Assembly (NCBI GenBank): GCA_017654855.1
Contig: CM030333.1
Span: 5,146,001 to 5,210,000, forward strand
From: Podospora anserina
Lineage: Eukaryota
Length of the DNA: 64,000 nt
Direction: 5' to 3'
Both the position numbers and the translations under genes were made by a program. The notes beneath the pieces were generated by a model that was given only the letters and a program-made list of their open reading frames with translations, made no database searches and was not told the origin of the DNA. Below, in pieces: positions 5,855 through 50,148 of the stretch. How positions within the stretch are numbered: position 1 is the first letter of the stretch; each line of letters opens with the position of its first letter.

Positions 5855-6817
5855 TTATATTGCCTGCCTTCCCCTTACGTTGAAGAGCTCATACTCGTCA
5901 CTGGTATTGTCGGTTTCCGCCATCATCAAATCGGGATGCCTTCTCTCCTGCTGCCGACCTGCCTTCAGCATCCCAGGGCTTGCCATTCTATGATCTCTAT
6001 CCACCCTGATTTCACCAAGTTCGGAAGGCGTTACATATCTCGGTCTGATTCCCGGAGCAGCTTCTTCCACTCTGCGATGCGGCAGGGGAGCTGTGTGTAG
6101 GACGTATACACACTGAGGACAGTATCCATCGGTATTGATATTTCTGTGACGATGGTGACACCCTCTACACCAACGCGCGTGAGGATGGGCATGAGAATGT
6201 AGAAGCCTGTCTCGCAGTGTGGTGCCAAGGGCCACTCGGGGTTGGGGTGGACCCTCGCCAAAGACCCGGTTGTACGAGATAGGCCGGAGGCTATGCCGGA
6301 CACCGTGAGGTTGCCTCGATGGTGATGGCGGTGGAGAGTGCCGCGTCCGGACGTAGCGGCATCCTGGGCTTGGGGCAACCGGTGCACCAGGCGAGATGCT
6401 ACGAAAATAAGGTCGGTCGTGATCCTCTCCTTCGACACCCCCAATGATAGCCCGAACAGGAGAGGGATTGCGGAAGGGAGGAGAGTGGCGTGTGGGCGCA
6501 AGCGGATGTGGTGGATATGTTTTCAGCTGGTAGCCTGCCTCACGAATGATCATGCTGGCGCCTGGGGCATTGTATATGATGGTGTTAGAGGATTCGTAAG
6601 CGGCTTCCGGGGGTTGCTCCATGTGACCCAAGTTGACAATTACCTTCACCGGGCGATCGGAGTCCCTACGAATCGCAGGAATAAGGCGGTGAGAAAGAAA
6701 AGCATCGATGGCATCCAATTCGGAGACTTCACGTGTCACAGCGTTCCCGATGTAGGGCGCCGTCTTGCGATAGGGATAATGCCTTGCCCCATATGGTTCA
6801 GGTCGGTGATGTGCCAT
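5855..6817 (-). CDS. Hypothetical P/R/H-rich protein with small CxxC...CxxC motif
   Basis: 320-codon ATG-initiated ORF; WCRGCHH...GYCPQCV; no family recognised. Confidence 0.6.
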   Translation of the reverse strand: MAHHRPEPYGARHYPYRKTAPYIGNAVTREVSELDAIDAFLSHRLIPAIRRDSDRPVKVIVNLGHMEQPPEAAYESSNTIIYNAPGASMIIREAGYQLKTYPPHPLAPTRHSPPFRNPSPVRAIIGGVEGEDHDRPYFRSISPGAPVAPSPGCRYVRTRHSPPPSPSRQPHGVRHSLRPISYNRVFGEGPPQPRVALGTTLRDRLLHSHAHPHARWCRGCHHRHRNINTDGYCPQCVYVLHTAPLPHRRVEEAAPGIRPRYVTPSELGEIRVDRDHRMASPGMLKAGRQQERRHPDLMMAETDNTSDEYELFNVRGRQAI

Positions 6818-7112
6818 GGCTTAGGCTCAAGTGGGTGGGTGAAAAAGGACAGAGAGCGAATTCGGGCAAAAGAAAGAGCTGTTCAAAGGGGCCAGGAGGG
6901 GCAAATGTAGGGGTACTACGCAGTCGAGCGTGTCAAGGGTAGCTACCTATATTCTGTCTCACAACCTAGAGTAGTACAGCGAAACCGGACAGCATCTTCC
7001 GTGAACCAAAGTCTTGCGTGATGAAGTGTGTATTTCTTGTCAGGGCCTTTCAGTTGATTTGAGCTGTATCTAAGAGAACATGAGCAAGGTTACCATATCC
7101 TCTTTCTACCAT

Positions 7113-7764
7113 CTAACCTTGAATTTCAATCTTGCGAGCCCCCGTCTTTTCAGCCTTGGGCACGAGGATATCCAGAATGCCTTGGTTGAATTTGGCCTTC
7201 ACCTTGTCTTGGTCGATGTTGTTGGGAAAGTTGAAGACGCGGGAGAACTCTCCAAATGAACGCTCGCTCAGCCAGTACTTGGGTCCCGAGGATCTATCCT
7301 TGGAATCTTTGGTGTCCTTGGAATCCTTCATCTTCACTTCACTGTCTTTACCTTTGGCGCCTTCTATCTTCTTGGATGAGTCGGAGCTGCCCAGGCGAAG
7401 CGATGGGTCACCTTCCTCGTGCTTGCGTTCGGTGTGGCCACTGACAACCATGGTCTGCGGGCTGGGAGATACAAAGTTAGGGATGGGTTGGGAAGAAGGG
7501 GAAAATGGGGGAGGGGTACTCGGTAAATCGAATTTCGACATTTTCAGGCGAGACACCTGGGAGCTCCCCTTGCAGGGTATAATCTTTGTCGTGCTCGGTG
7601 ACGTCGAACTTTGGCGAGAAGTTCTGGAGGCTGGTGCTGCTGTCGGCATGGTGACCTCCGAGCTCACGGGCGTACTTGTCGAAGTCATCCAACATGCGAA
7701 AGAGTGACGAGAAGCCAGGCGTTGGAGAATTGGCGTGGGAGATGCGGGGGTACCAGAGAGACAT
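7113..7764 (-). CDS. hsp30: Small heat-shock protein (Hsp20/alpha-crystallin, Hsp30-like); exons 7764-7520 and 7461-7113
   Basis: FSPKFDVTE..YTLQGELPGV and YWLSERSFGEFSRVFNFP..IDQDKVKAKFNQGILDILVPK; intron 7462-7519 (gtaccc..ctaac..cag) restores FTD-PQTM. Confidence 0.93.
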
Positions 7765-8049
7765 CTTGGGCGGAGTTCTGTTTGAGATCCTGGGACCGGT
7801 GATGCTATGTGCGAGCCGGCGGGTAGTGGCTGACTTGGGAGCTCTTGAGCGGAGAAGAGTGGGAATCTTGCCGGTAAAAGTGCGCGATGACTGCATGAAA
7901 CCTTGGCTGAAGGGCAGGTTGAAGACAGCCTATCTTCTTACATTTGGCAAGCAAGCAGACAGCTATATACCAGCTCTCGTCTCTCCTCGTCTGCTTTGAC
8001 ATTCCTCTCGGTTGATGGTCTCCGTCATGTTGGCTGTCCCCTGGCCTTG

Positions 8050-8059
8050 TTCTCGAAGC
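8050..8059. promoter_or_regulatory. Possible heat-shock element upstream of the sHSP gene
   Basis: gTTCtcGAAg (nTTCnnGAAn) about 285 bp upstream of the ATG, beyond a TATA-like site near 7963; only two units. Confidence 0.35.
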
Positions 8060-8937
8060 GTTTGATGCGTAATGTGGTCGTCGTGACGATAAAATGAACT
8101 GACCTGGACGCGCTGTGGTTGCTCCATCTGAAATCCCAACGCTGCACAGACGGGACCCACCAAGAACTGAATCCGACCGTCGCCGCCCGGAGGACGGGAG
8201 TGGAGACGGGAGGCTCCGGGTGTGAGGCCGGATGCTATCTGGCCAGTTCCGGGAAAGAATACTCTCTGGACCGATTAAAGACCCATCCCCTCAGCAGTCA
8301 AAGACAGCGGAGAAAGTCCGAAAGAAGTGTGATGTGATTGGATCTGTGGAATGACAGGGCCGGACCTTTTCAGCCGACAAGCCCTGGTTTTGGTTACGGT
8401 GCTAGCTCGAAATAAGCAGCAGCTAATCTGTAAAGGGTAACGTGGACTTGTAACAGTGATGTCATAGGCAACAATCCTTGGATGCTGCCCGTGGGATGCC
8501 ACCCCGCAGTTTGACCACCGGGGAAAGGGCGGGAACCTCTTGGTCCTTGTACCAGCTTTTCATTTTCTGCTTGCTGCCTCGAGTGCCTCTTGATCCGTAG
8601 GTGGTACGCACTGATCAGGGAAGGGCTTGTTCCCCGCCGAGCTGCACATCCACCGATCACCCAGCCAGTTTGATGACTGAACCTCCCCACACTCCCATTA
8701 TTCATCATTGTGCAGGATTACCACCAAACATCGTACGATTCTTGCATCCCCCAGCTTCTCGACTGCCCGCTTGAGCCCTCTCCCTCCAGCGCGACGGGCG
8801 CACCAGCCCACACCGCACCTCACCACCCCTCCCCGACCGACAAGTAGAGCAGTTTCCAGACTGCCGCAGCGGCCCGCTAGGTAGCCCACTTGCTCCGGCC
8901 CGGGCTCAACCAGTCAGGTCCGTTTTTCGGCTTCAAG

Positions 8938-40382: not shown

Positions 40383-42643
40383 TGTGACGAACCCCTGTAC
40401 AGAACCTCTGAAAGGGATACGGGTTGAAGGTAACTTCTGACAATTGGTTTGGTGCAGCTAAACAGTGCACAACAAGATGTCTCAATGTAAACATAAAATA
40501 ACGTGCATGATAAGCGAGCGACGCAGACAAGCGAGCGACGCACTCTCCACCACCTTACTATAACTATCCTCAATTGCTAGACCACAACATTAAGAACCAA
40601 CTACAATTACGTCAGAAACAGCTGAATCAGACCCTTCTGCAGCCTCCTGGCAAGTGCGGGAATTATGGCCAGGTTTGCCGCACACACTATAGCACTGAAC
40701 CTTCGTACGAGCCCCCCTGGCACTACCGCTATCCAGCTATATTTCTTCCACTGCCTCCTCACCCACGGCCTTCTAGTCTAGTAGATCCTATGCATCTTAT
40801 ATAGTAAGTAATCCTCCGAGCCGTATATATATTTTTTTAGCTCTCCGGCGCTTATTTAATATTTTATTAGTTTTACGGAGCGAAGCGTTCTTTAATTAAA
40901 GGAGGGCTACTTAATATATTATAACTATCGTACCTTTAATAAGCTAGTCTATAGTAACTAATATCGAAGTCGGGGAACTATTTTAATAATTAGTAATACG
41001 AATTTTAATAAACGTTAATTATAAATTAGTTTTTCGGGGGTTTTATAGTATTTAAAATATTTAAAGTAATACCGTGTCCGGCTTTAAGGATAAAAGTATT
41101 AACGTATAAAGCTTTATATTTAATTTAAAAAATATTTTTTTTAGATTATATAGTATAAAATTAATATTTATAAAGTTATTTTATATATTTTTCTCCGTTA
41201 TAAAAGTAAAGAAAGTTTTACGGAAAGTATAAAGGAACTCGAGCTTACTTATATAATTAATATATATATATATTAAATCCTCGATTTAGCGGCCGTACGT
41301 TTACTTTAATAGTTTAAAATAACCGATATCGAGTAGCTAGAGAAAGTAAAAAAAGTATAAAGGTATATAAAGTATAATAATATTACTTTACTAATAATAA
41401 TATTTAAATTTAATTAAATAATAATTTTTATAATTATCGAGGATTAATAACCGGTATTTACCCTTTATACGAAACGCTATATAATAATCGAAATATTTAA
41501 TTTAATTTAAACTTACCGGATTAATAATTTAATTATTATTAATAATTACAATATATTAAATAAATAGTAAATTATATTCGGTATATTAATTAATAAAATA
41601 ATATTATATAATTAAAATAATAAAGGGCGGGATAATTTAATTAAAAATATTAATTTTTTAAATTATTATTATTTATTTATAATTATTAAATTAAATTAAT
41701 TTTACTTTATTTAAATCGTTTAAAATTATAATTATTATATTTACGAAAATAATATTTATTATAAATTTAGTTTCGTTAAAGTTATAAATATTATTATTTA
41801 TAATACTATATTTAACTTTAATATTCTATATAAATATAAACTATTTAGTAATAATTTTTAAATCCTTATATTTAACCCTTTAATAATAATATTTACGTAT
41901 AAAACGCGTACGGAGCTATAACTAACGTTTAACGAAGTTATAGGCCTAACGTTTATTAATAAAAAGCGCGTTACATACGTGTAATAATTAATTAACTATA
42001 TCTTCTATACTATTTAATTTAAGTAAGAATACGCGTATAGATAGCTTAAGGACGTATTAAACTATCGTCTTTTCCTCTAGATCCGTTAAATTACGTAAGT
42101 TAGCCGGAATATTGCGTTACATTAGTCGGCCATTACGCCTATAGCGAAGGGTTACTTCTGGAACGTTATATAACTTAGCTATAGTGCGGATACTAAGATC
42201 CTCCTTATTTTAAATAGCTTCGAGGGTAAGAAGAAATCTCGCTTCTTTTAAAGGGCTATCCATGGTTATTAGTAGTGAATTGGAGTAAAAGATATTAAAG
42301 AGACGCGTTGTGGTAGAAAGTACGTCGCTCGCTTATCTGCGTCGCTCGCTTATTATGCACGTTACCGTGAATATAATTATGAATTGCATACTGCGGAACT
42401 ATTTATAAGCTATTTAGTTCCTCCGTATATATAGACCTAATGCCAAGCCTGGATCATTCTGTTTTTCCCCGGATTATAACCGACTCCTAAGGATCATAAG
42501 TGATTCCTAGGAATCGCTCATGATTCCTTTATGTCCCGGATGATCCACCTTTTATTGGTCCATCCTCCTTTCTCTTAATTAGCTGCGTGCCTCCTCTTCC
42601 CTATTAGTTATTCTTTGCGGGTGTCCACATTATATTCGTGACA
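40383..42643 (-). mobile_element. LTR copy A (about 397 bp net), interrupted by the inner DNA transposon
   Basis: Ends tgtgacga...tcgtgaca; 40383-40500 is the inverted, lightly mutated equivalent of the 3' parts of LTRs C and D; shared TATA motif at 42416-42437. Confidence 0.85.
40501..42362 (-). mobile_element. Inner full-length (1862 bp) Fot1/pogo transposon, RIP-inactivated (Pat-like)
   Basis: About 53-bp TIRs (acgtgcatgataagcgagcgacgcagac...) differing only by C>T/G>A; TA duplication at 40499-500 and 42363-64; transposase from ATG 42263 (MDSPLKEARFLLTLEAI*..) with TAA/TAG stops. Confidence 0.95.
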
Positions 42644-42872
42644 CCAGTTCCTCCGTATATATAGACCTTAGGACCGTAGACCGTTGACTTACAGACGGTC
42701 CTCGGTCCACTCCTAATTGGCCGATACTGGACCGTGGACCGTGAGCTCCGCCGCGGTCCCCGGTCCCCATCTGATTAGTCCGTTTGCCCACCTGGACCGT
42801 GAGCCCCGCTCGATTGCGCGGTCCAGTCCTGATTGGTCCGTCGTGGCCCCACTGTCTTCCAGAACCGTAACA
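42644..42872 (-). mobile_element. Partial LTR copy B: variable half plus TATA motif only
   Basis: Ends ccgtaaca (tgttacgg on the minus strand, the same start as LTR C); TATA motif at 42646-42667; GGACCG/CGGTCC repeats. Confidence 0.75.
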
Positions 42873-43199: not shown

Positions 43200-43516
43200 G
43201 GCACTATGGTGGTGCCCAAGCCCAGATTGCGCGCTACATTTGCGATAGAAAGTTAAGCGATATTATTAGATGGCCGAGCCTAGGGCATTAGCTAAATAAC
43301 GGAAGTACTATTAAAAGTATACTTAATAAAATACTAAGAAAAACGGAAGATAGGAGGAAGCTAGGCGGGTATGGTTAAAGGACTTCGTATTGGTGGATAA
43401 TCCGGAGTAGGAGGACGCTCTTAAACGATATAACCGCCTAGGAAACGATTCGCGGCCCTTCGCGGGGGCCGGTAACCTTTAACGGACCACAAACGGTATT
43501 TTCGGAAGTATTAATA
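43200..43516 (+). mobile_element. Fragment of the gag-pol junction of another, related gypsy copy; left boundary approximate
   Basis: 43430-43516 aligns to 45101-45185 (ataaccgc.taggaaacga...aacctttaacggac). Confidence 0.7.
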
Positions 43517-46500
43517 TGTTACGGACCTGATATAAGTGGGGAGCGCGGGGCGCGACCGTCTAACCACTGGAACGGAAAAGTAAGGAAGTCGGATTATTAC
43601 TAGTGCTAAGGGTAATAATTACGATTATTATTAATCTTCGATAAACGACGAGTAATAATTAATATTATTACTAATAATAATAGTAATAAACCGGTCTATA
43701 TATACGGAGGAACTGGCTAATATAGATAGATAGTTCCGTAGTATATAATTTAGCTTATATTTACGGTATTTAGTATTTATATTAAGATATCTTATTATAC
43801 ACTATTTAATTGCACCGAACTAATTATTAGAAGTTACCTTTAACTAATATCCCTTTTAGAGGTTCTATATAGAGGTTCGTTATACGTTATATACTTACTT
43901 TAAATTTATTATAGATAAATTAAAGGTATTAAGATAATATTATAGCCGGAAACGTTAGTATTTAAAGGGGCTCGACCTAACCTACTATCGATTAGCTTCT
44001 CGCTTATATCTAAAAGCTTAAAAATAAATTACGCCTTTTATATAATATCCTTACGCAAGAAAACGCTATACTTTACTAGGAGATTAGTACCTTACGTAAG
44101 GAGGGAGAGCGTACTAAGCTCGAGGTACCCGATCGCTATAAAGGTGTGAAAGGAGAGTTAGGAGGATTTTTAATTTAACTTAAAGCTTACTTTAGATACT
44201 ACCCTTCTCGTTTCCTAGACGAGGAATTTAAAATAGTATACGCCGCGTCTAGGCTTAAAAATAAAGTATTTACTTAGTTCGAGCCGATTTTAGAAAACTA
44301 CTTCGATAATAAGTATAACGAGAGGGAAAATATTACGAAAAAATACTTTAAATTGTATAAAGATTTTAAAAAAAAAATTAAAAAAGTATTTAAAGAATAT
44401 AATAAAGGTAAGCGTACCTAAAAGCGACTAACTAACCTTAAGTAAACTCGATTTACTACCGATTATACTATAATATTTAAAATAAATATATTCCGTAATA
44501 TAATTAACGATAAAGGATTAATATAATTTTTTTATAACAAGCTTAAAGAAGAACTTAAAGATAAGCTATATCGAATAAAGTAACCGGAGATTATCGATAA
44601 ATATATTATAATAGTAATTTATATTAATAATTAATAATATTAATACCGTAAAAAACGTAAAAATATATATATATAAGGACCCTATTACTTTAACGATAAA
44701 AGGAAAAAACGGTTATACGGGATTTACGTTTTAGAAACTATATACGTAAAGCTTATAGAAATTAATATTATTTAATAATAAAAGTTATAAAATTAAAGTA
44801 AAAATAATTTTAAATATTTTAATTATAGTAAAGTAAAATATTTTAAAAAGAACTATAAAGTATCTAAGGAACTCAAATAGAAAAAAAAGATTATAATAAT
44901 TATTATATTAAAGGAATTAAAAATTATAAAGGTTATAGTTATCGGGTACTAATAAAGTAAAGTAAAGAACTACTATCGGATATATATATAAAAGAATATT
45001 AAGTACGTAAAAAACGGAAAATAAAAGGAAATTAAGTAAGTATAATTAAAAAACTTTATATTATTAAATAACCCAGAGTAAAAAAATACTTTTAAATAAT
45101 ATAACCGCTTAGGAAACGACTTACGGCTTTTCGCGGAGGCTAATAACCTTTAACGGACTATAAATAGTATTTTCGTAAATATCGGTGTAAAGCGAAGGTA
45201 TAGAATAATAACCCGGTATTTGTTAGCGAGGTCGCTACTATATAAGAAGGAAATAAAAAAGATAAATACTTTTAAATTATAGTATAATAAAAAGATATTT
45301 AGGTAATAATATTAATAAACGGAGGTATAAAGACGAATTTAATTTCGTTATAGTTTGTATATTAAATTAGGATACTATAAAAAAAAAGAATAAATCGTTA
45401 TATAAAGATTATTTTTAATATAAAGAGTTTATAAAAAAATATTACCTTTAGATATTATAGTTGAAGGAATAAATTTTTTAATTATATTTAATATTATAAA
45501 TATAGGACCCTAGAAGGATATAATCCTAAAATAATTATAGTATAAAGATTATAATTTAAATATCGATTAGAAGGATAATAGTTATTTATAATTAAAAAAG
45601 TTTTAAAAGTATTTAATTAACGATAGGAAATTAGGCGTACGTATAGAGTAAAGTGTAGGATAAGTATCCTCCATGGTACTACCGTAAAAAACTTAAAAAG
45701 TAATAGTATATTTTATTAATATAGGTAGTAAAATCGAAGAAGTAAAGTTAATAACGTTAATAGAGATATCGGAGGTTAATAAATATATTTATTATAATAA
45801 TATAAAAAAAAGTAAGAAAAAAGTAATATTAATAAAATATCGAAGATATTTAGCCTTTACGGCTAAGTATTTAGAGGGACTTTTAAAGCGAAGGCTATAG
45901 GATTACGAAATTAAATTAAAAGAAGGAACTAAGTTACGGCTATTTAAAGTTTATTATACTAATAATAAATAGAGTAAAGAGTTATAGAAATATTTAAATA
46001 AGAATTTAAAGAAAGGATATATTAGGGAATCTATATCGTTAATAAGATACTTCGTATTCTTCGTACTAAAAAGGATAATAATTTATAATTATATATAAAT
46101 TACCGTTAATTAAATAACGAAACGGTAAAAAATAATTACCCGCTACTATTAATATTTAAATTATAGAGTTAATTAATTAAAGTATAATACTTTATACGTT
46201 TAAATATATTTATCGGGTATAGCTATATATAGATTAAAGAAAAAGATAAATAAAAAATAGCGTTTCGTATACCTTATAATTATTTCGAATATCTCGCAAT
46301 ATTATTTAAATTAATTAATACGCCTATAACGTTTTAATCTTTCGTTAATTATATAATCCGGAAGTATTTCGATAAAATAATAATATACTATCTTAACGAC
46401 GTTCTTATTTACTTACGTACGCTAAAGGAGTATAAGCGATACGTATGAAAGATACTCGACGCGTTATATAAAACCGGATTTTTAATTAATAAAAAGAAAA

Positions 46501-46525
46501 GTAAGTTTTATATATAAAAAATAAT

Positions 46526-47157
46526 TGTTAATGTGTGGGTACTACTAAGTGCCCTACTTACTGCCCTACAGATTAATATTACAGTGGGCAATACTGCTAT
46601 AAGCAGTAATAGAACTTCCCGGCTTGGATCCCTTTAGAATATTCTTTACAAGGGACCCTTAAAGGCTTACAGAGCTACTGTGGCCTAAGGCTTAGTCAAT
46701 GGATACTAAAACCTTCCAAAGTAGCTACAGGCTTACGTAGTAAGTTGCCACAATAGTGTGATTTACAGGGCACCTCTGCTACCGAAGGTTCTATAGATTT
46801 CCGTGAGTCTACACTAGACCCACCTAAGCCCACCAAATACCCCAAAGTGGTATAGGGGCTTCCAGGGCCTACAGGACCCACAGTAGGCCTACGAAGGCCT
46901 ATATATAGACCTCTCCTCTCTCCTGTAAAATAGTTCTCTTTCTTTCCTTAAGGGCAAAAGCTTAAGGCTAAGGCCAAAGGCCAAAGCCAAGGGTAATAAA
47001 GGCAATTCTTATTCTTTATACCTCACTGTATTACAGTGCTTTACCTTCCTTCGGCACTGCCGTCGTATCCTCCCGCTTCCGCTTGTGCACTACTATATTT
47101 TATAGCAACCCTATATAGGTTCTATATTATAGGCCTATCAGGGCTTACCAGCTAACA
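46526..47157. mobile_element. Solo LTR of a different family (632 bp) at the RT/integrase deletion breakpoint
   Basis: tgttaa...gctaaca termini; internal TATA-like cctatatatagacc near 46898; higher GC than the flanks; flanking 5-mers do not match (ataat / gaaag). Confidence 0.75.
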
Positions 47158-47787
47158 GAAAGGATACGGAAATACTATATTATTAAAAGGCTCGAGGGAC
47201 CTTGCTTTCAGGGGGGAGATATAATATTCCTTTTTATACGTAATTTACATACTAAAAGATTTAATAAAAAGCTAGACTATAAGAGAGTAGGCCCGTTTAA
47301 AATTAAAAAAAAATATTAAAAACGGTATTTAAATTAAAGCTATTTAATACGATATATTTATAGTTATATACTTTTTATATTTTACTTTTGGAACCCGTAT
47401 TACCAGTAAATAAAACTAATATATAGGTAATAGCGGAGGACGAAGAAGAAAAGTATAATATAAAAAAGATACTGGATTTACGGTTTAATAAAGGTTAATT
47501 AAAGTATTTAGTTAATTAGTTAGAATACCCGACTATAAATAATTTATCGGAGTTAAAGGTAAATTTTAATTACTTAAATAAGTAAAAAGAATTCTATTAG
47601 CGATACTTAGACCGACCCAAATATAAACCTAAATAAAAGATCTATATTAGAATTACTTAGAGAAGTAACTTTAATATAAAAGAACCTCGATAAGAATCGA
47701 ACCTACGCCTTCGACGTAGTAGTCGACGTACTATACTACGAGGTTAGAAGGTATAAGGGGGACTAAATATAAGTAGCGCTACGCGCT

Positions 47788-48471
47788 TTAATTACCTTAG
47801 GAAGGGGAAGGCGCGCTAGCGGCGGTATTTTAGGCGGTTAAAAAAGAAGGACCGGCTACGCTAAGATCGAGGGAAAGGTTAAGCGGCTAGTCGAAGCCTG
47901 AGGAAGGATCTAGGAAAGAGAAATCGGAAGGTATAGTAGGGGAGGACTTTACTACGGGACGGTTCCGGGGATTTAGAGAAGCGGGGGCCGGAGGAGAAGC
48001 GTCGTTAAATGACGAGGCAGACTATGCGGCCAACGCGGCTTCCTCCTACTTAATACGCTCCAGCTCTTCCACACTATCGAGGCCACGAAAGACAGCCGTA
48101 ACTATCCGCTTAAACTATATTCGTTTCTATAAACGTAAACGGTTAATTTTTTAATTTAAAGCGGTACGTTAAAACTTAGTTTTTACTATCTCTATCTTTA
48201 ATTAATTATATTAAATCATAATTTTACGGAGCTATTAAACGGATAACCTACGAGCGTTATAAAGGGATTAATTATATTATATATAAGTAGCGTAACGCTT
48301 GGAAACGGAAGGGGAATTTTTATAAAAAGAATTATATTTTTTATAAAAGAAATAAGTACGTTTTATAATAATAGTAAACCGTAGGACTATAGTAAATAGC
48401 TCGTTACAATCCGTTATTTTCGAGTACAGAAGTTTAGTACCGGGTCGCGCCTTACTTATATAATTAAATAT
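47788..48471 (-). pseudogene. RIP-inactivated antisense accessory ORF of the retroelement: Zn2Cys6-like cluster, coiled coil and acidic tail; ends approximate
   Basis: Single frame with only TAA/TAG stops; TAT/TAC codons spaced x2-x6-x9-x2-x7 at 48354-48259; RLRL*KR..RGLDSVEELER. Confidence 0.75.
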
Positions 48472-50148
48472 AATAAAGCGTAATGAATAAGGAAAAAAGA
48501 AGAAAATTTATAAATATTAGCGGACGTAGGAGAGTAAATTAAGTCGACGGGACTTCGGCCTAAGAGGGGGAGCGTCGTATTACGGCTTAACACTTAGCGG
48601 GGCACAGGCGTACTGCAAACTAATTATTAAAATAGGATTAAGGACTAATTAAAATAAAATTATTAAGATCGAGGATCGATCCAAAAAAATTAATCCTAAA
48701 ATAAATAGTATCGATGGGATCGATATTCGAGTCTATCGATCCAGGACGGTACTAGGCTTAATACAGGGTCTATATATACGGAGGAACTAACTAGCGTAAA
48801 TAAATAGTTCCGCAGTATATAATTCCACAATTATATTTACGGTATCTTATATTTATATTAAAATATCTTATTATGTACTATCTAGCTATACCGAACTAAT
48901 TATTAGAAGTTACCTTTAACCCGTATCCCTTTTAAAAGTTCTATATAGAGGTTCGTCACACATAACGGAAAAGAATATATAGAGTAGCTTTATAGGTATT
49001 AACTTTATACTATACGATCCAGAGAGGGTGCCTTTTAAACTAGATATTAAGCTTCGTACGCTAATACCCCCGACCTTACGGCTTAGTACTACGTAACTTT
49101 AAGTTTTTTAGATACTATATAACCCTCGAGAAGCCGAATCGCAATTAACGTTTATTAAAACTTATATTATTAATTATTAAAATAGCTTCCTAATTTCGAT
49201 ATTAATTACTATAGATTAACTTACTAAGGGTATAATAGCTATAATATATCGAGTGGCTCTCTTCGAGTTAGAGGTCGCTTCGCTCTATAAAGCTAACAAG
49301 GTATTAAGTAAACGCCGGAAAGCTAAAAAAATACGCGTACGTCTCGGAGGATTACTTACTATGTAGGATATATACGATCTACTAGATAATAAGGCCGTAA
49401 GTGGAGAGGGAGTGTAAGAAACGTAGCCGGATAGTAGTAGTGCAGGGGGGTCTTATACGAAGGTTCGGTGCTGTGGTATGTGCGGCAAGCCTAACTATAA
49501 TGCGCGCACTTACTAGGAGGCTAGAGAATTATCTAATATATTTATTATAGAGGAAATTATAGTTAGTTACTAGTATTATATATAGGAATTAAGGATAGTT
49601 ATTAGTAGGTAAGGGAGAACCCACGGCTCGGTTATACCCACGACTCGCTTATAAAATACGTTATAACCTTTTGCTTAGAAATTTATGTCTCACCTTTTCC
49701 ATTATTCTCCGATGAAGGAACCCGGCTTCCGCCCCCCTGAACCCCTGAACCACCCCTGAGCCCCTGAGCCCATAAGCCCTGCCAAGGCACGGCCCTGAGC
49801 TATAGGCTCCTAACTTTAAGCAAGTTGCAATTCTGTGCTTAGTTGAAGATTGAAGGAGGGGAGGACTTTCTGTTAATTTTAAATAGAGCCTGGGATGGTG
49901 TGCTGATCGATGAACGATGAATAGAATGGTAGAACCTGACGATGTATCTAGATATTTGACACAGTACACCCAGATATAAGAACTGTTACCCAGGCTCTGA
50001 GACTAACAGGCCATTCTGCATGCACTCCGTCATCAAGTTTTGTCCCTCTCTGCATGTAAGGCACTCCAAAATCAACTAATCCAGCTGGTCATTTTTAGAC
50101 ATTTCCGCGCTGGGGGTACTGCTATCGCCAGTTTGATATATCGTACGC

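Follow-up and report, generated by a model that had tools for sequence, protein, structure and literature searches.

The closest described counterpart of the gene reported here is brtn, the antisense gene of the Boty-like elements of Botrytis and Sclerotinia (Zhao et al. 2011, Virology 417:248; PMC8365987, PMC7264820, PMC4227169, PMC5987419). As far as these descriptions go, brtn is an extra gene located between pol and the 3' LTR of a chromodomain-bearing fungal gypsy element, and it runs antisense to gag-pol. The present gene shares this arrangement, whereas the hosts differ: the Boty-like elements reside in Leotiomycetes, while the named members of the family studied here all come from Sordariomycetes. 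The two are likened by position and orientation as described, and not by protein sequence. Among the species-named matches of our searches neither Botrytis nor Sclerotinia occurs, and no match carries the name BRTN.

Antisense ORFs between pol and the 3' LTR are also on record for the plant Ty3/gypsy elements Grande, RIRE2, Retand and PvRetro13 (PMC7264820). In that account they resemble the present gene in position and orientation, in being found in most copies of a family and in being suspected of a regulatory role (PMC7264820). The account assigns them to non-chromovirus lineages and reports no clear similarity to known proteins, in contrast to the Zn2Cys6-like cluster that is recognisable in the family described below; what the antisense extra ORFs of LTR elements do is treated there as an open question (PMC7264820).

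The locus under study lies in the window, the 64,000-nt stretch of Podospora anserina DNA that was analysed here, and had been proposed in an initial annotation to be a retrotransposon-encoded antisense gene for a Gal4-like regulator. Retroviruses likewise possess antisense proteins transcribed from the 3' LTR, such as HBZ of HTLV-1 and ASP of HIV-1. The window family has in common with these an antisense gene beside the 3' LTR, a small protein, a helical region of the dimerisation type and basic stretches; a shared domain, bZIP included, was not found among the Pfam matches listed for the window family, and the comparison is one of analogy only. The initial annotation further held that the gene falls outside the canonical gag-pol-chromo model. 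It is indeed additional to gag-pol, but an antisense gene in this position had already been published in 2011 with brtn, as far as the descriptions of that gene go.

The host element is a RIP-ruined chromovirus

The AT-rich block at 40.5-50 kb of the window bears a RIP signature, with a GC content of 0.32, a TA/AT ratio of 1.42 and a (CA+TG)/(AC+GT) ratio of 0.36, as compared with a GC content of 0.51 and an index of 1.27 in its flanks. Stop-masked six-frame translations of the block matched a reverse transcriptase and a Tf2-type integrase SH3 domain in Pfam, both on the + strand. The element at 43518-48961 (+) is shown to be a dead Ty3/gypsy chromovirus, ruined by RIP and internally deleted, with an LTR pair, gag, reverse transcriptase, integrase SH3 domain and chromodomain in chromovirus order (Table 1). 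RNase H and the integrase core, for which approximately 1.1 kb would be expected, are missing or unrecognisable in the window copy, both by Pfam and by tblastn with the pol proteins of L001 and L014, two of the metagenomic loci described below. Following the reverse transcriptase remnant, these tblastn alignments skip to pol residue ~1027-1056.

The LTR repeat pair 43693-43885 / 48767-48961 is 86% identical. For the parts of the LTRs upstream of this pair, a transition-tolerant alignment scored 85, compared with 48.1 ± 8.1 for shuffled sequences (maximum 78 of 500). On the basis of this alignment, of the junctions between polypurine tract and TGTTAC in L001 and L011, and of an alignment of 11 upstream regions in which the polypurine tract forms a conserved block, the LTRs were placed at 43518-43885 and 48578-48961. 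In other copies the sequence after 48956 continues like that after the 5' LTR, into the internal region.

Table 1 Features of the window element and its antisense gene
Feature	Position	Strand	Evidence or remarks
5' LTR	43518-43885	+	Starts TGTTAC; only the last ~195 nt are high-copy in the source organism
gag remnant, RIP-mutated	44116-44631	+	tblastn with L014 gag residues 37-208, E 2e-19
Reverse transcriptase remnant	45835-46514	+	Pfam RVT_1, E 1.5e-8; tblastn with L001/L014 pol residues 238-477
Integrase C-terminal SH3 (Tf2-1 type) remnant	47152-47313	+	Pfam SH3_Tf2-1, weak (E 0.018); tblastn E 2e-10
Chromodomain remnant, end of pol	47373-47600	+	tblastn with L014 pol residues 1100-1162 at 47373-47552; translation read by eye
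Antisense accessory gene, RIP-inactivated	47788-48471	-	Start ATG changed to ATA; 16 stops; six Cys codons changed to Tyr
Ser/Pro-rich linker and aromatic-acidic C-terminal tail	47791-48021	-	Complement of a purine-rich stretch of the + strand
Long helical (coiled-coil/hairpin) region	48022-48240	-	Most conserved block of the family (alignments A2 and A4); coordinates derived from residue numbers
Six-Cys cluster region	48259-48354	-	C-x2-C-x6-C-x9-C-x2-C-x7-C with Tyr read as the family Cys
First purine run	48489-48506	+	On the antisense strand a CT-rich tract 18-35 nt upstream of the start of the small gene
Polypurine tract	48562-48572	+	5 nt before the 3' LTR; collinear with the polypurine tract and TGTTAC junction of L001 and L011
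3' LTR	48578-48961	+	Starts TATTAC, the RIP form of TGTTAC

Remnants of a pogo/Fot-like DNA transposon, with weak DDE_1 and HTH_psq matches, were found at 40556-42245 (-) and 48962-49607 (+), the stretch directly after the 3' LTR being an inverted copy of 40556-41201 (75% identical). Just before the 5' LTR, positions 43302-43511 are 71% identical to an internal stretch of the gag region (44967-45182), which suggests that the element may have inserted into an older member of its own family. On the minus strand, two short stretches at 42395-42437 and 42646-42667 repeat, in inverted orientation, the initial 22-43 nt of the high-copy LTR segment starting at 48767; three tandem units with a spacing of 58 nt follow at 42677-42841.

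The antisense gene is recovered by homology

The minus-strand frame is present as the initial annotation described it, running from 48471 to 47788 with the translation given and with six TAT/TAC codons at 48259-48354. Statistical arguments do not single this frame out. That its stops are exclusively TAA or TAG is true but not distinctive, as TGA accounts for only 3 of the 105 stops over the six frames; RIP turns TpG into TpA everywhere, so that TGA is depleted in every frame. The frame contains 16 stops, and the other five contain 12, 17, 21, 17 and 22. Similarly, the spacing pattern of the Tyr codons can be confirmed at 48354-48259, but a second match, at 41728-41832 in AT-rich junk, occurs within the same 9.5-kb RIP block, and Markov simulations with the same dinucleotide make-up yielded a mean of 0.12 pattern matches per block of this size. 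These arguments do not discriminate, and it is homology that carries the case.

We used the stop-masked frame as a phmmer query against 1.84 billion representative proteins (50% clustering). This identified 55 fungal proteins at E <= 1e-3, seven of them at E <= 1e-10, with the best match (E 3.3e-14, 196 aa) aligning collinearly over query residues 5-199 and target residues 5-193. The frame was thus a real gene before RIP. When aligned with 36 homologues (alignment A2, 37 rows including the window frame), the six window Tyr residues fall in columns with Cys in 29-33 of the 36, which bears out the proposal that the Tyr codons were once Cys codons and that less mutated copies have Cys at these positions. 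The remaining rows mostly have Tyr in the Cys columns and appear to be RIP-mutated themselves. Of the 16 window stops, six coincide with columns in which Gln or Trp occurs most often, among them a Trp column (34/36) and a Gln column (32/36), and the first codon of the window frame, ATA, aligns with Met in 27 of 30 sequences. Conversely, tblastn of family proteins against the window placed all 71 of 71 matches at 47791-48501 on the minus strand. It follows from these Cys, Gln, Trp and Met columns and from the tblastn placement that the frame, its limits and the Cys reading are right. The frame is conserved among copies, as seen from the 55 homologues and from the 11 metagenomic loci in which it is open; to judge by its mutations, the window's own copy is non-functional.

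All species-named matches are 'hypothetical proteins' of Sordariomycetes, annotated as free-standing in, for example, Fusarium, Trichoderma, Gaeumannomyces, Cytospora, Monosporascus, Staphylotrichum and Corynascus, and elements with the antisense gene occur in at least six orders of this class. The family proteins measure ~170-240 aa. A basic N-terminus is followed by the six Cys, then by a long and strongly conserved helical block, a linker rich in Ser and Pro, and a tail with aromatic-acidic motifs. A profile search of proteins returned 13, with 8000 candidates scored; protein searches with the N-terminal 60 residues of family member P0013 and with the divergent L014 protein recovered nothing beyond the query itself. 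Two members, P0004 and P0020, both extend beyond the usual stop into a common 25-residue C-terminal tail, which is probably a read-through into conserved element DNA.

The antisense gene is linked to pol and evolves under constraint

Metagenome contigs were scanned with a profile of the closer family members, yielding 14 loci (L001-L014). In 11 of these (L001, L003-L008, L010, L011, L012 and L014) pol domains are found directly downstream on the opposite strand, a count that takes in both intact loci and stop-masked degraded ones. In L009 and L013 the right flank is missing, and both are joined to gag across an LTR, while L002 has no informative flank; none of the 14 contradicts the linkage. 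L001 provides the clearest layout, with the small ORF (195-836, +) convergent with a 1227-aa pol (-) that comprises protease, reverse transcriptase, RNase H, integrase, SH3 domain and chromodomain, and with gag before pol. The same layout is seen in L014. In L001 and L011 a pair of LTRs encloses the ORF, and the ORF tail overlaps the final pol codons by ~110-190 nt in L001, L014, L005 and L006. The window shows the corresponding order, from the chromodomain (to ~47600) through the antisense ORF and the polypurine tract to the 3' LTR (Table 1). The gene is therefore retrotransposon-borne and antisense between chromodomain and 3' LTR, as the initial annotation had supposed, with the same arrangement in 11 of the 14 independent loci, and its homologues are indeed linked to retroelements. 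As a separate observation, positions 1-2261 of L014 are repeated at 6195-8455 (period 6194 nt, 99.96% identity), which reflects an element in tandem or circular form, or else a loop made through the LTR during assembly.

A dN/dS below 1 had been suggested as a check on the gene, and values of 0.21, 0.07 and 0.26 were obtained for the three pairs with dS < 1. In all 55 pairs of the 11 locus ORFs pN is smaller than pS, and the variability at codon positions 1, 2 and 3 of the locus ORFs (0.305, 0.247 and 0.448, respectively) is highest at the third. The protein is under purifying selection, with dN/dS of 0.07-0.26 in the unsaturated pairs. The identity between small proteins tracks that between the SH3-chromodomain regions of pol (Mantel r 0.70, reached by 2 of 720 permutations), and over this small sample of 6 loci the correlation fits a long co-inheritance of the small gene with pol. 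By these sequence comparisons, the antisense gene is shown to be a conserved component of a lineage of Ty3/gypsy elements.

Upstream region and possible expression

The initial annotation placed the 3' LTR about 100 bp upstream of the gene. With the LTR beginning at 48578 and the gene at 48471, the distance is 106 nt, in good agreement. The window and 8 of 10 loci have a CT run of at least 10 nt, corresponding to the polypurine tract on the strand of the gene, at a distance of 89-127 nt upstream of the gene's start; L005 and L009 have a run below the 10-nt threshold, which nonetheless aligns in the upstream-region alignment. A second, CT-rich tract, 15-43 nt upstream, is present in the window as well as in 6 of the 10 loci (L001, L003, L005, L006, L009 and L014).

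An A/T-rich, TATA-like element was observed ~60-80 nt upstream of the start in L001, L003, L005, L009, L006 and L013, and four of these six loci have the motif CGCCAACA in common at this distance. The TATA-like element together with CGCCAACA may constitute the core promoter of the small gene.

Among Logan contigs of the source organism, a 151-nt contig (X18, depth 3.6) covers positions 47846-47931 of the ORF tail with 14 differences from the window, and because of these differences it derives from another copy. It is strandless and its RNA label is a guess, so that it is a weak hint of expression at most. None of the sequencing runs behind the matching Logan contigs is recorded as RNA, and in two runs guessed to be RNA, most of 47.3-48.7 kb is uncovered by Logan contigs.

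The protein combines a Zn2Cys6-like cluster with a long helical block

The Zn2Cys6 consensus is C-x2-C-x6-C-x5-12-C-x2-C-x6-8-C. In an alignment of 36 family sequences (A4), four of the six Cys are invariant and the other two are present in at least 90%, with a spacing of x2, x6-7, x8-9, x2 and x7. The spacing agrees with the Gal4-type assignment made in the initial annotation; otherwise the likeness to the Gal4 family stays sub-threshold: the Pfam cut-off is never reached, and the basic residues between the second and third Cys are mostly absent. In a search with the Pfam Zn_clus model (PF00172, gathering cut-off 21 bits), the best family member scored 16.0 bits (E 0.013). Sub-threshold Zn_clus matches were obtained for 5 of 20 members at E <= 1, for 16 of 36 at E <= 10 and for 1 of 10 locus ORFs. 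Zn_clus is the Pfam family matched by most members (16/36), and no Pfam family was matched above its cut-off by members of the antisense protein family. The bZIP domain is absent from the per-protein Pfam tables and from the 25 families listed of 110.

In GAL4, basic residues between the second and third Cys contact DNA. The family consensus after the second Cys is E-x-x-G-x-x and thus not basic, although a few divergent members, such as L013, are more basic. We refer to the domain as Zn2Cys6-like, and refrain from assigning it to the Zn2Cys6 family, on account of the sub-threshold matches and of the E-x-x-G after the second Cys.

A sequence profile search of the PDB returned Zn2Cys6 matches to Cep3 (E 0.8) and LAC9 (E 5) only. 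The top rows of this search were TAL-effector repeats (E 4e-4, summed), made up of eleven 1-5-bit matches to one short motif after the sixth Cys; as no single repeat is significant, we take this likeness as chance or as a repeat artefact. In the Atlas, the nearest cluster (score 0.93) carries the automatic name 'Zn(2)-C6 fungal-type domain-containing protein', and an Atlas search with residues 1-50 gave scores of 0.81 or lower.

An AlphaFold2 model of P0013, built with the family alignment, has a pLDDT of 83 and contains two short helices at the Cys-x2-Cys pairs, followed by helices 50-100 and 106-127, which form a hairpin (pLDDT >90). A Foldseek search with the full model ranked LAC9 first and GAL4 second, both weakly (E 2.7 and 3.1), and superposition with VIA gave Z 2.6 for LAC9 and Z 2.0 for GAL4 (1.9 Å over 32-33 residues). 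For a model of the N-terminal 74 residues (pLDDT 78), 18 of the 19 Foldseek matches listed of 22 are Zn2Cys6 DNA-binding domains, at E 1.3-9.9, with entries for Pho7, PUT3, GAL4, HAP1, AlcR, LAC9, Leu3 and PPR1. VIA with this domain reached Z 2.0 at most, for CYP1. A wide VIA search with the N-terminal domain found nine chains at Z >= 2 and no Zn2Cys6 chain among them, and a wide search with the full model found only generic long-helix matches (Z ~6). AlphaFold2 may merely reproduce a fold learned for this Cys pattern. Homodimer prediction for residues 1-135 gave a score of 0.02, which speaks neither for nor against a dimer.

The window family shares with the Gal4-type modules (GAL4, LAC9, PUT3, HAP1, Leu3, Pho7, PPR1 and AlcR), which are its top structural matches, the spacing of the six Cys and, in the predicted models, the arrangement of two short helices from the Cys-x2-Cys pairs, a short linker and a long helix. 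It departs from them at the DNA contacts, where Gal4-type proteins have Lys or Arg and the family, below the Pfam cut-off, has acidic residues or Gly. The loop between the third and fourth Cys is longer (8-9 residues), and the protein, of only ~200 aa, is encoded by a transposon and is devoid of the fungal-specific middle homology region.

The initial annotation described a heptad-rich helix and a D/F/L/W-rich tail after the cluster, and both were found, as a long helical segment followed by a Ser/Pro-rich tail with aromatic-acidic motifs. The helical block includes a basic stretch of the RLRKQKK type and is better conserved than the cluster (A4). The purine content of the + strand at 47800-47999, opposite the tail, is 0.67-0.74.

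Possible function of the antisense gene

The explanation that accounts best for these data, and that we consider probable with moderate confidence, is a dead chromovirus with a conserved third, antisense gene, whose product would be a zinc-binding nuclear factor that binds nucleic acid and tunes the element. The element carried gag and pol and, as a third gene, this one on the other strand, located after pol and before the polypurine tract. Its protein of ~170-230 aa would act as a nuclear, oligomeric factor that tunes either the element's own transcription or the surrounding chromatin. By analogy with brtn and the retroviral antisense genes, the promoter would be located in the ~100-nt spacer between polypurine tract and start, together with the adjoining 3' LTR read backwards. 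We regard an element-encoded putative nuclear regulator as the most likely reading because of the protein architecture, the position by the 3' LTR and the constraint at the protein level.

A serious rival reading, though on balance we think it the less likely one, is that the element-borne gene is real and its protein serves as another kind of cofactor and not as a transcription regulator. Such a cofactor might bind or export element RNA, help in packaging, tether integration or counter host silencing, and the Cys cluster would then be a structural or an RNA- or protein-binding zinc module. The missing DNA-contacting basic residues of Gal4-type domains speak for this, as do the Zn_clus scores, below the cut-off in 36 of 36 members, and the fact that the best-conserved part of the protein is the helical block with its RLRKQKK-type stretch and not the cluster. 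Roles of this sort are known for accessory proteins of other LTR elements, CERV of Cer1 being described as acting in RNA export (PMC10309623). Against it, the fold search with the N-terminal domain yields almost only DNA-binding Zn2Cys6 domains among the rows listed (albeit at E above 1), and the order of cluster, short linker and long helix is that of Gal4-type DNA-binding modules.

A more specific form of the regulator is a transposon-encoded, sequence-specific Zn2Cys6 transcription factor that binds its own LTR and switches between sense and antisense expression, as a fungal counterpart of retroviral HBZ; this we view as doubtful. On this reading, zinc-cluster modules may have passed between such elements and the large family of Zn2Cys6 regulators of the host.

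Far less credible is the idea that the antisense RNA itself is what matters, for example by supplying double-stranded RNA that restrains the element, with the open frame incidental. Antisense transcription as a regulator is discussed for the plant antisense ORFs (PMC7264820), but dN/dS values of 0.07-0.26 with the third codon position most variable, six Cys that are invariant or nearly so, and a frame open in 11 loci all argue against it.

Copy numbers in the source organism bear on yet another explanation, namely that a single insertion, of a host gene fragment or of an unrelated small element, took place behind pol in the window copy. In Logan contigs of the source organism (genome ~38 Mb), depth over 47661-48717 is only ~4-12x single-copy, compared with ~140-265x at 46453-47207 (~250x at 46.6-47.2 kb) on one side and ~160-190x at 48718-49019 on the other, and some contigs link 47613 directly to 48772, all of which would suit a single insertion. 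However, the low depth over the ORF also fits a small subfamily with a variable U3, since the LTR really begins at 48578, and the layout is the same in 11 of 14 unrelated loci with saturated dS. The ORF also co-diverges with pol (6 loci) and lies inside LTR pairs (L001 and L011). We hold a single insertion to be highly improbable. Contigs ~80% identical to the window cover 48050-48514, and one contig spans 48531 into the LTR, which points to a small subfamily with the same arrangement in the source organism. At 46453-47207 and 48718-49019 the other copies differ from the window mostly by A>G and T>C changes and are on this ground less RIP-mutated.

A chance frame with a chance Tyr pattern in AT-rich, RIP-mutated DNA, for which the unremarkable stop count, the general scarcity of TGA, the expectation of ~0.12 patterns per 9.5 kb and the second match in junk might be cited, is rejected with near certainty by ~195 residues of collinear homology (E 3.3e-14) with Cys at the Tyr columns.

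Implications

The window family is a well-supported addition to a known but little-studied class of element-borne antisense genes. Our literature search, which had most subscription journals outside its scope, found no work linking such an antisense gene to a zinc cluster. Annotations of fungal LTR retrotransposons usually stop at gag-pol; here a lineage of these elements has a conserved third gene with a zinc-cluster-like and coiled-coil architecture. The family also illustrates that genes can be recovered by homology from heavily RIP-mutated DNA. It is a source of mis-annotation as well, because transposon genes of this kind may be counted as host regulators. As the family offers a candidate DNA-binding module and many intact natural members, the question of what such antisense genes do becomes directly testable.
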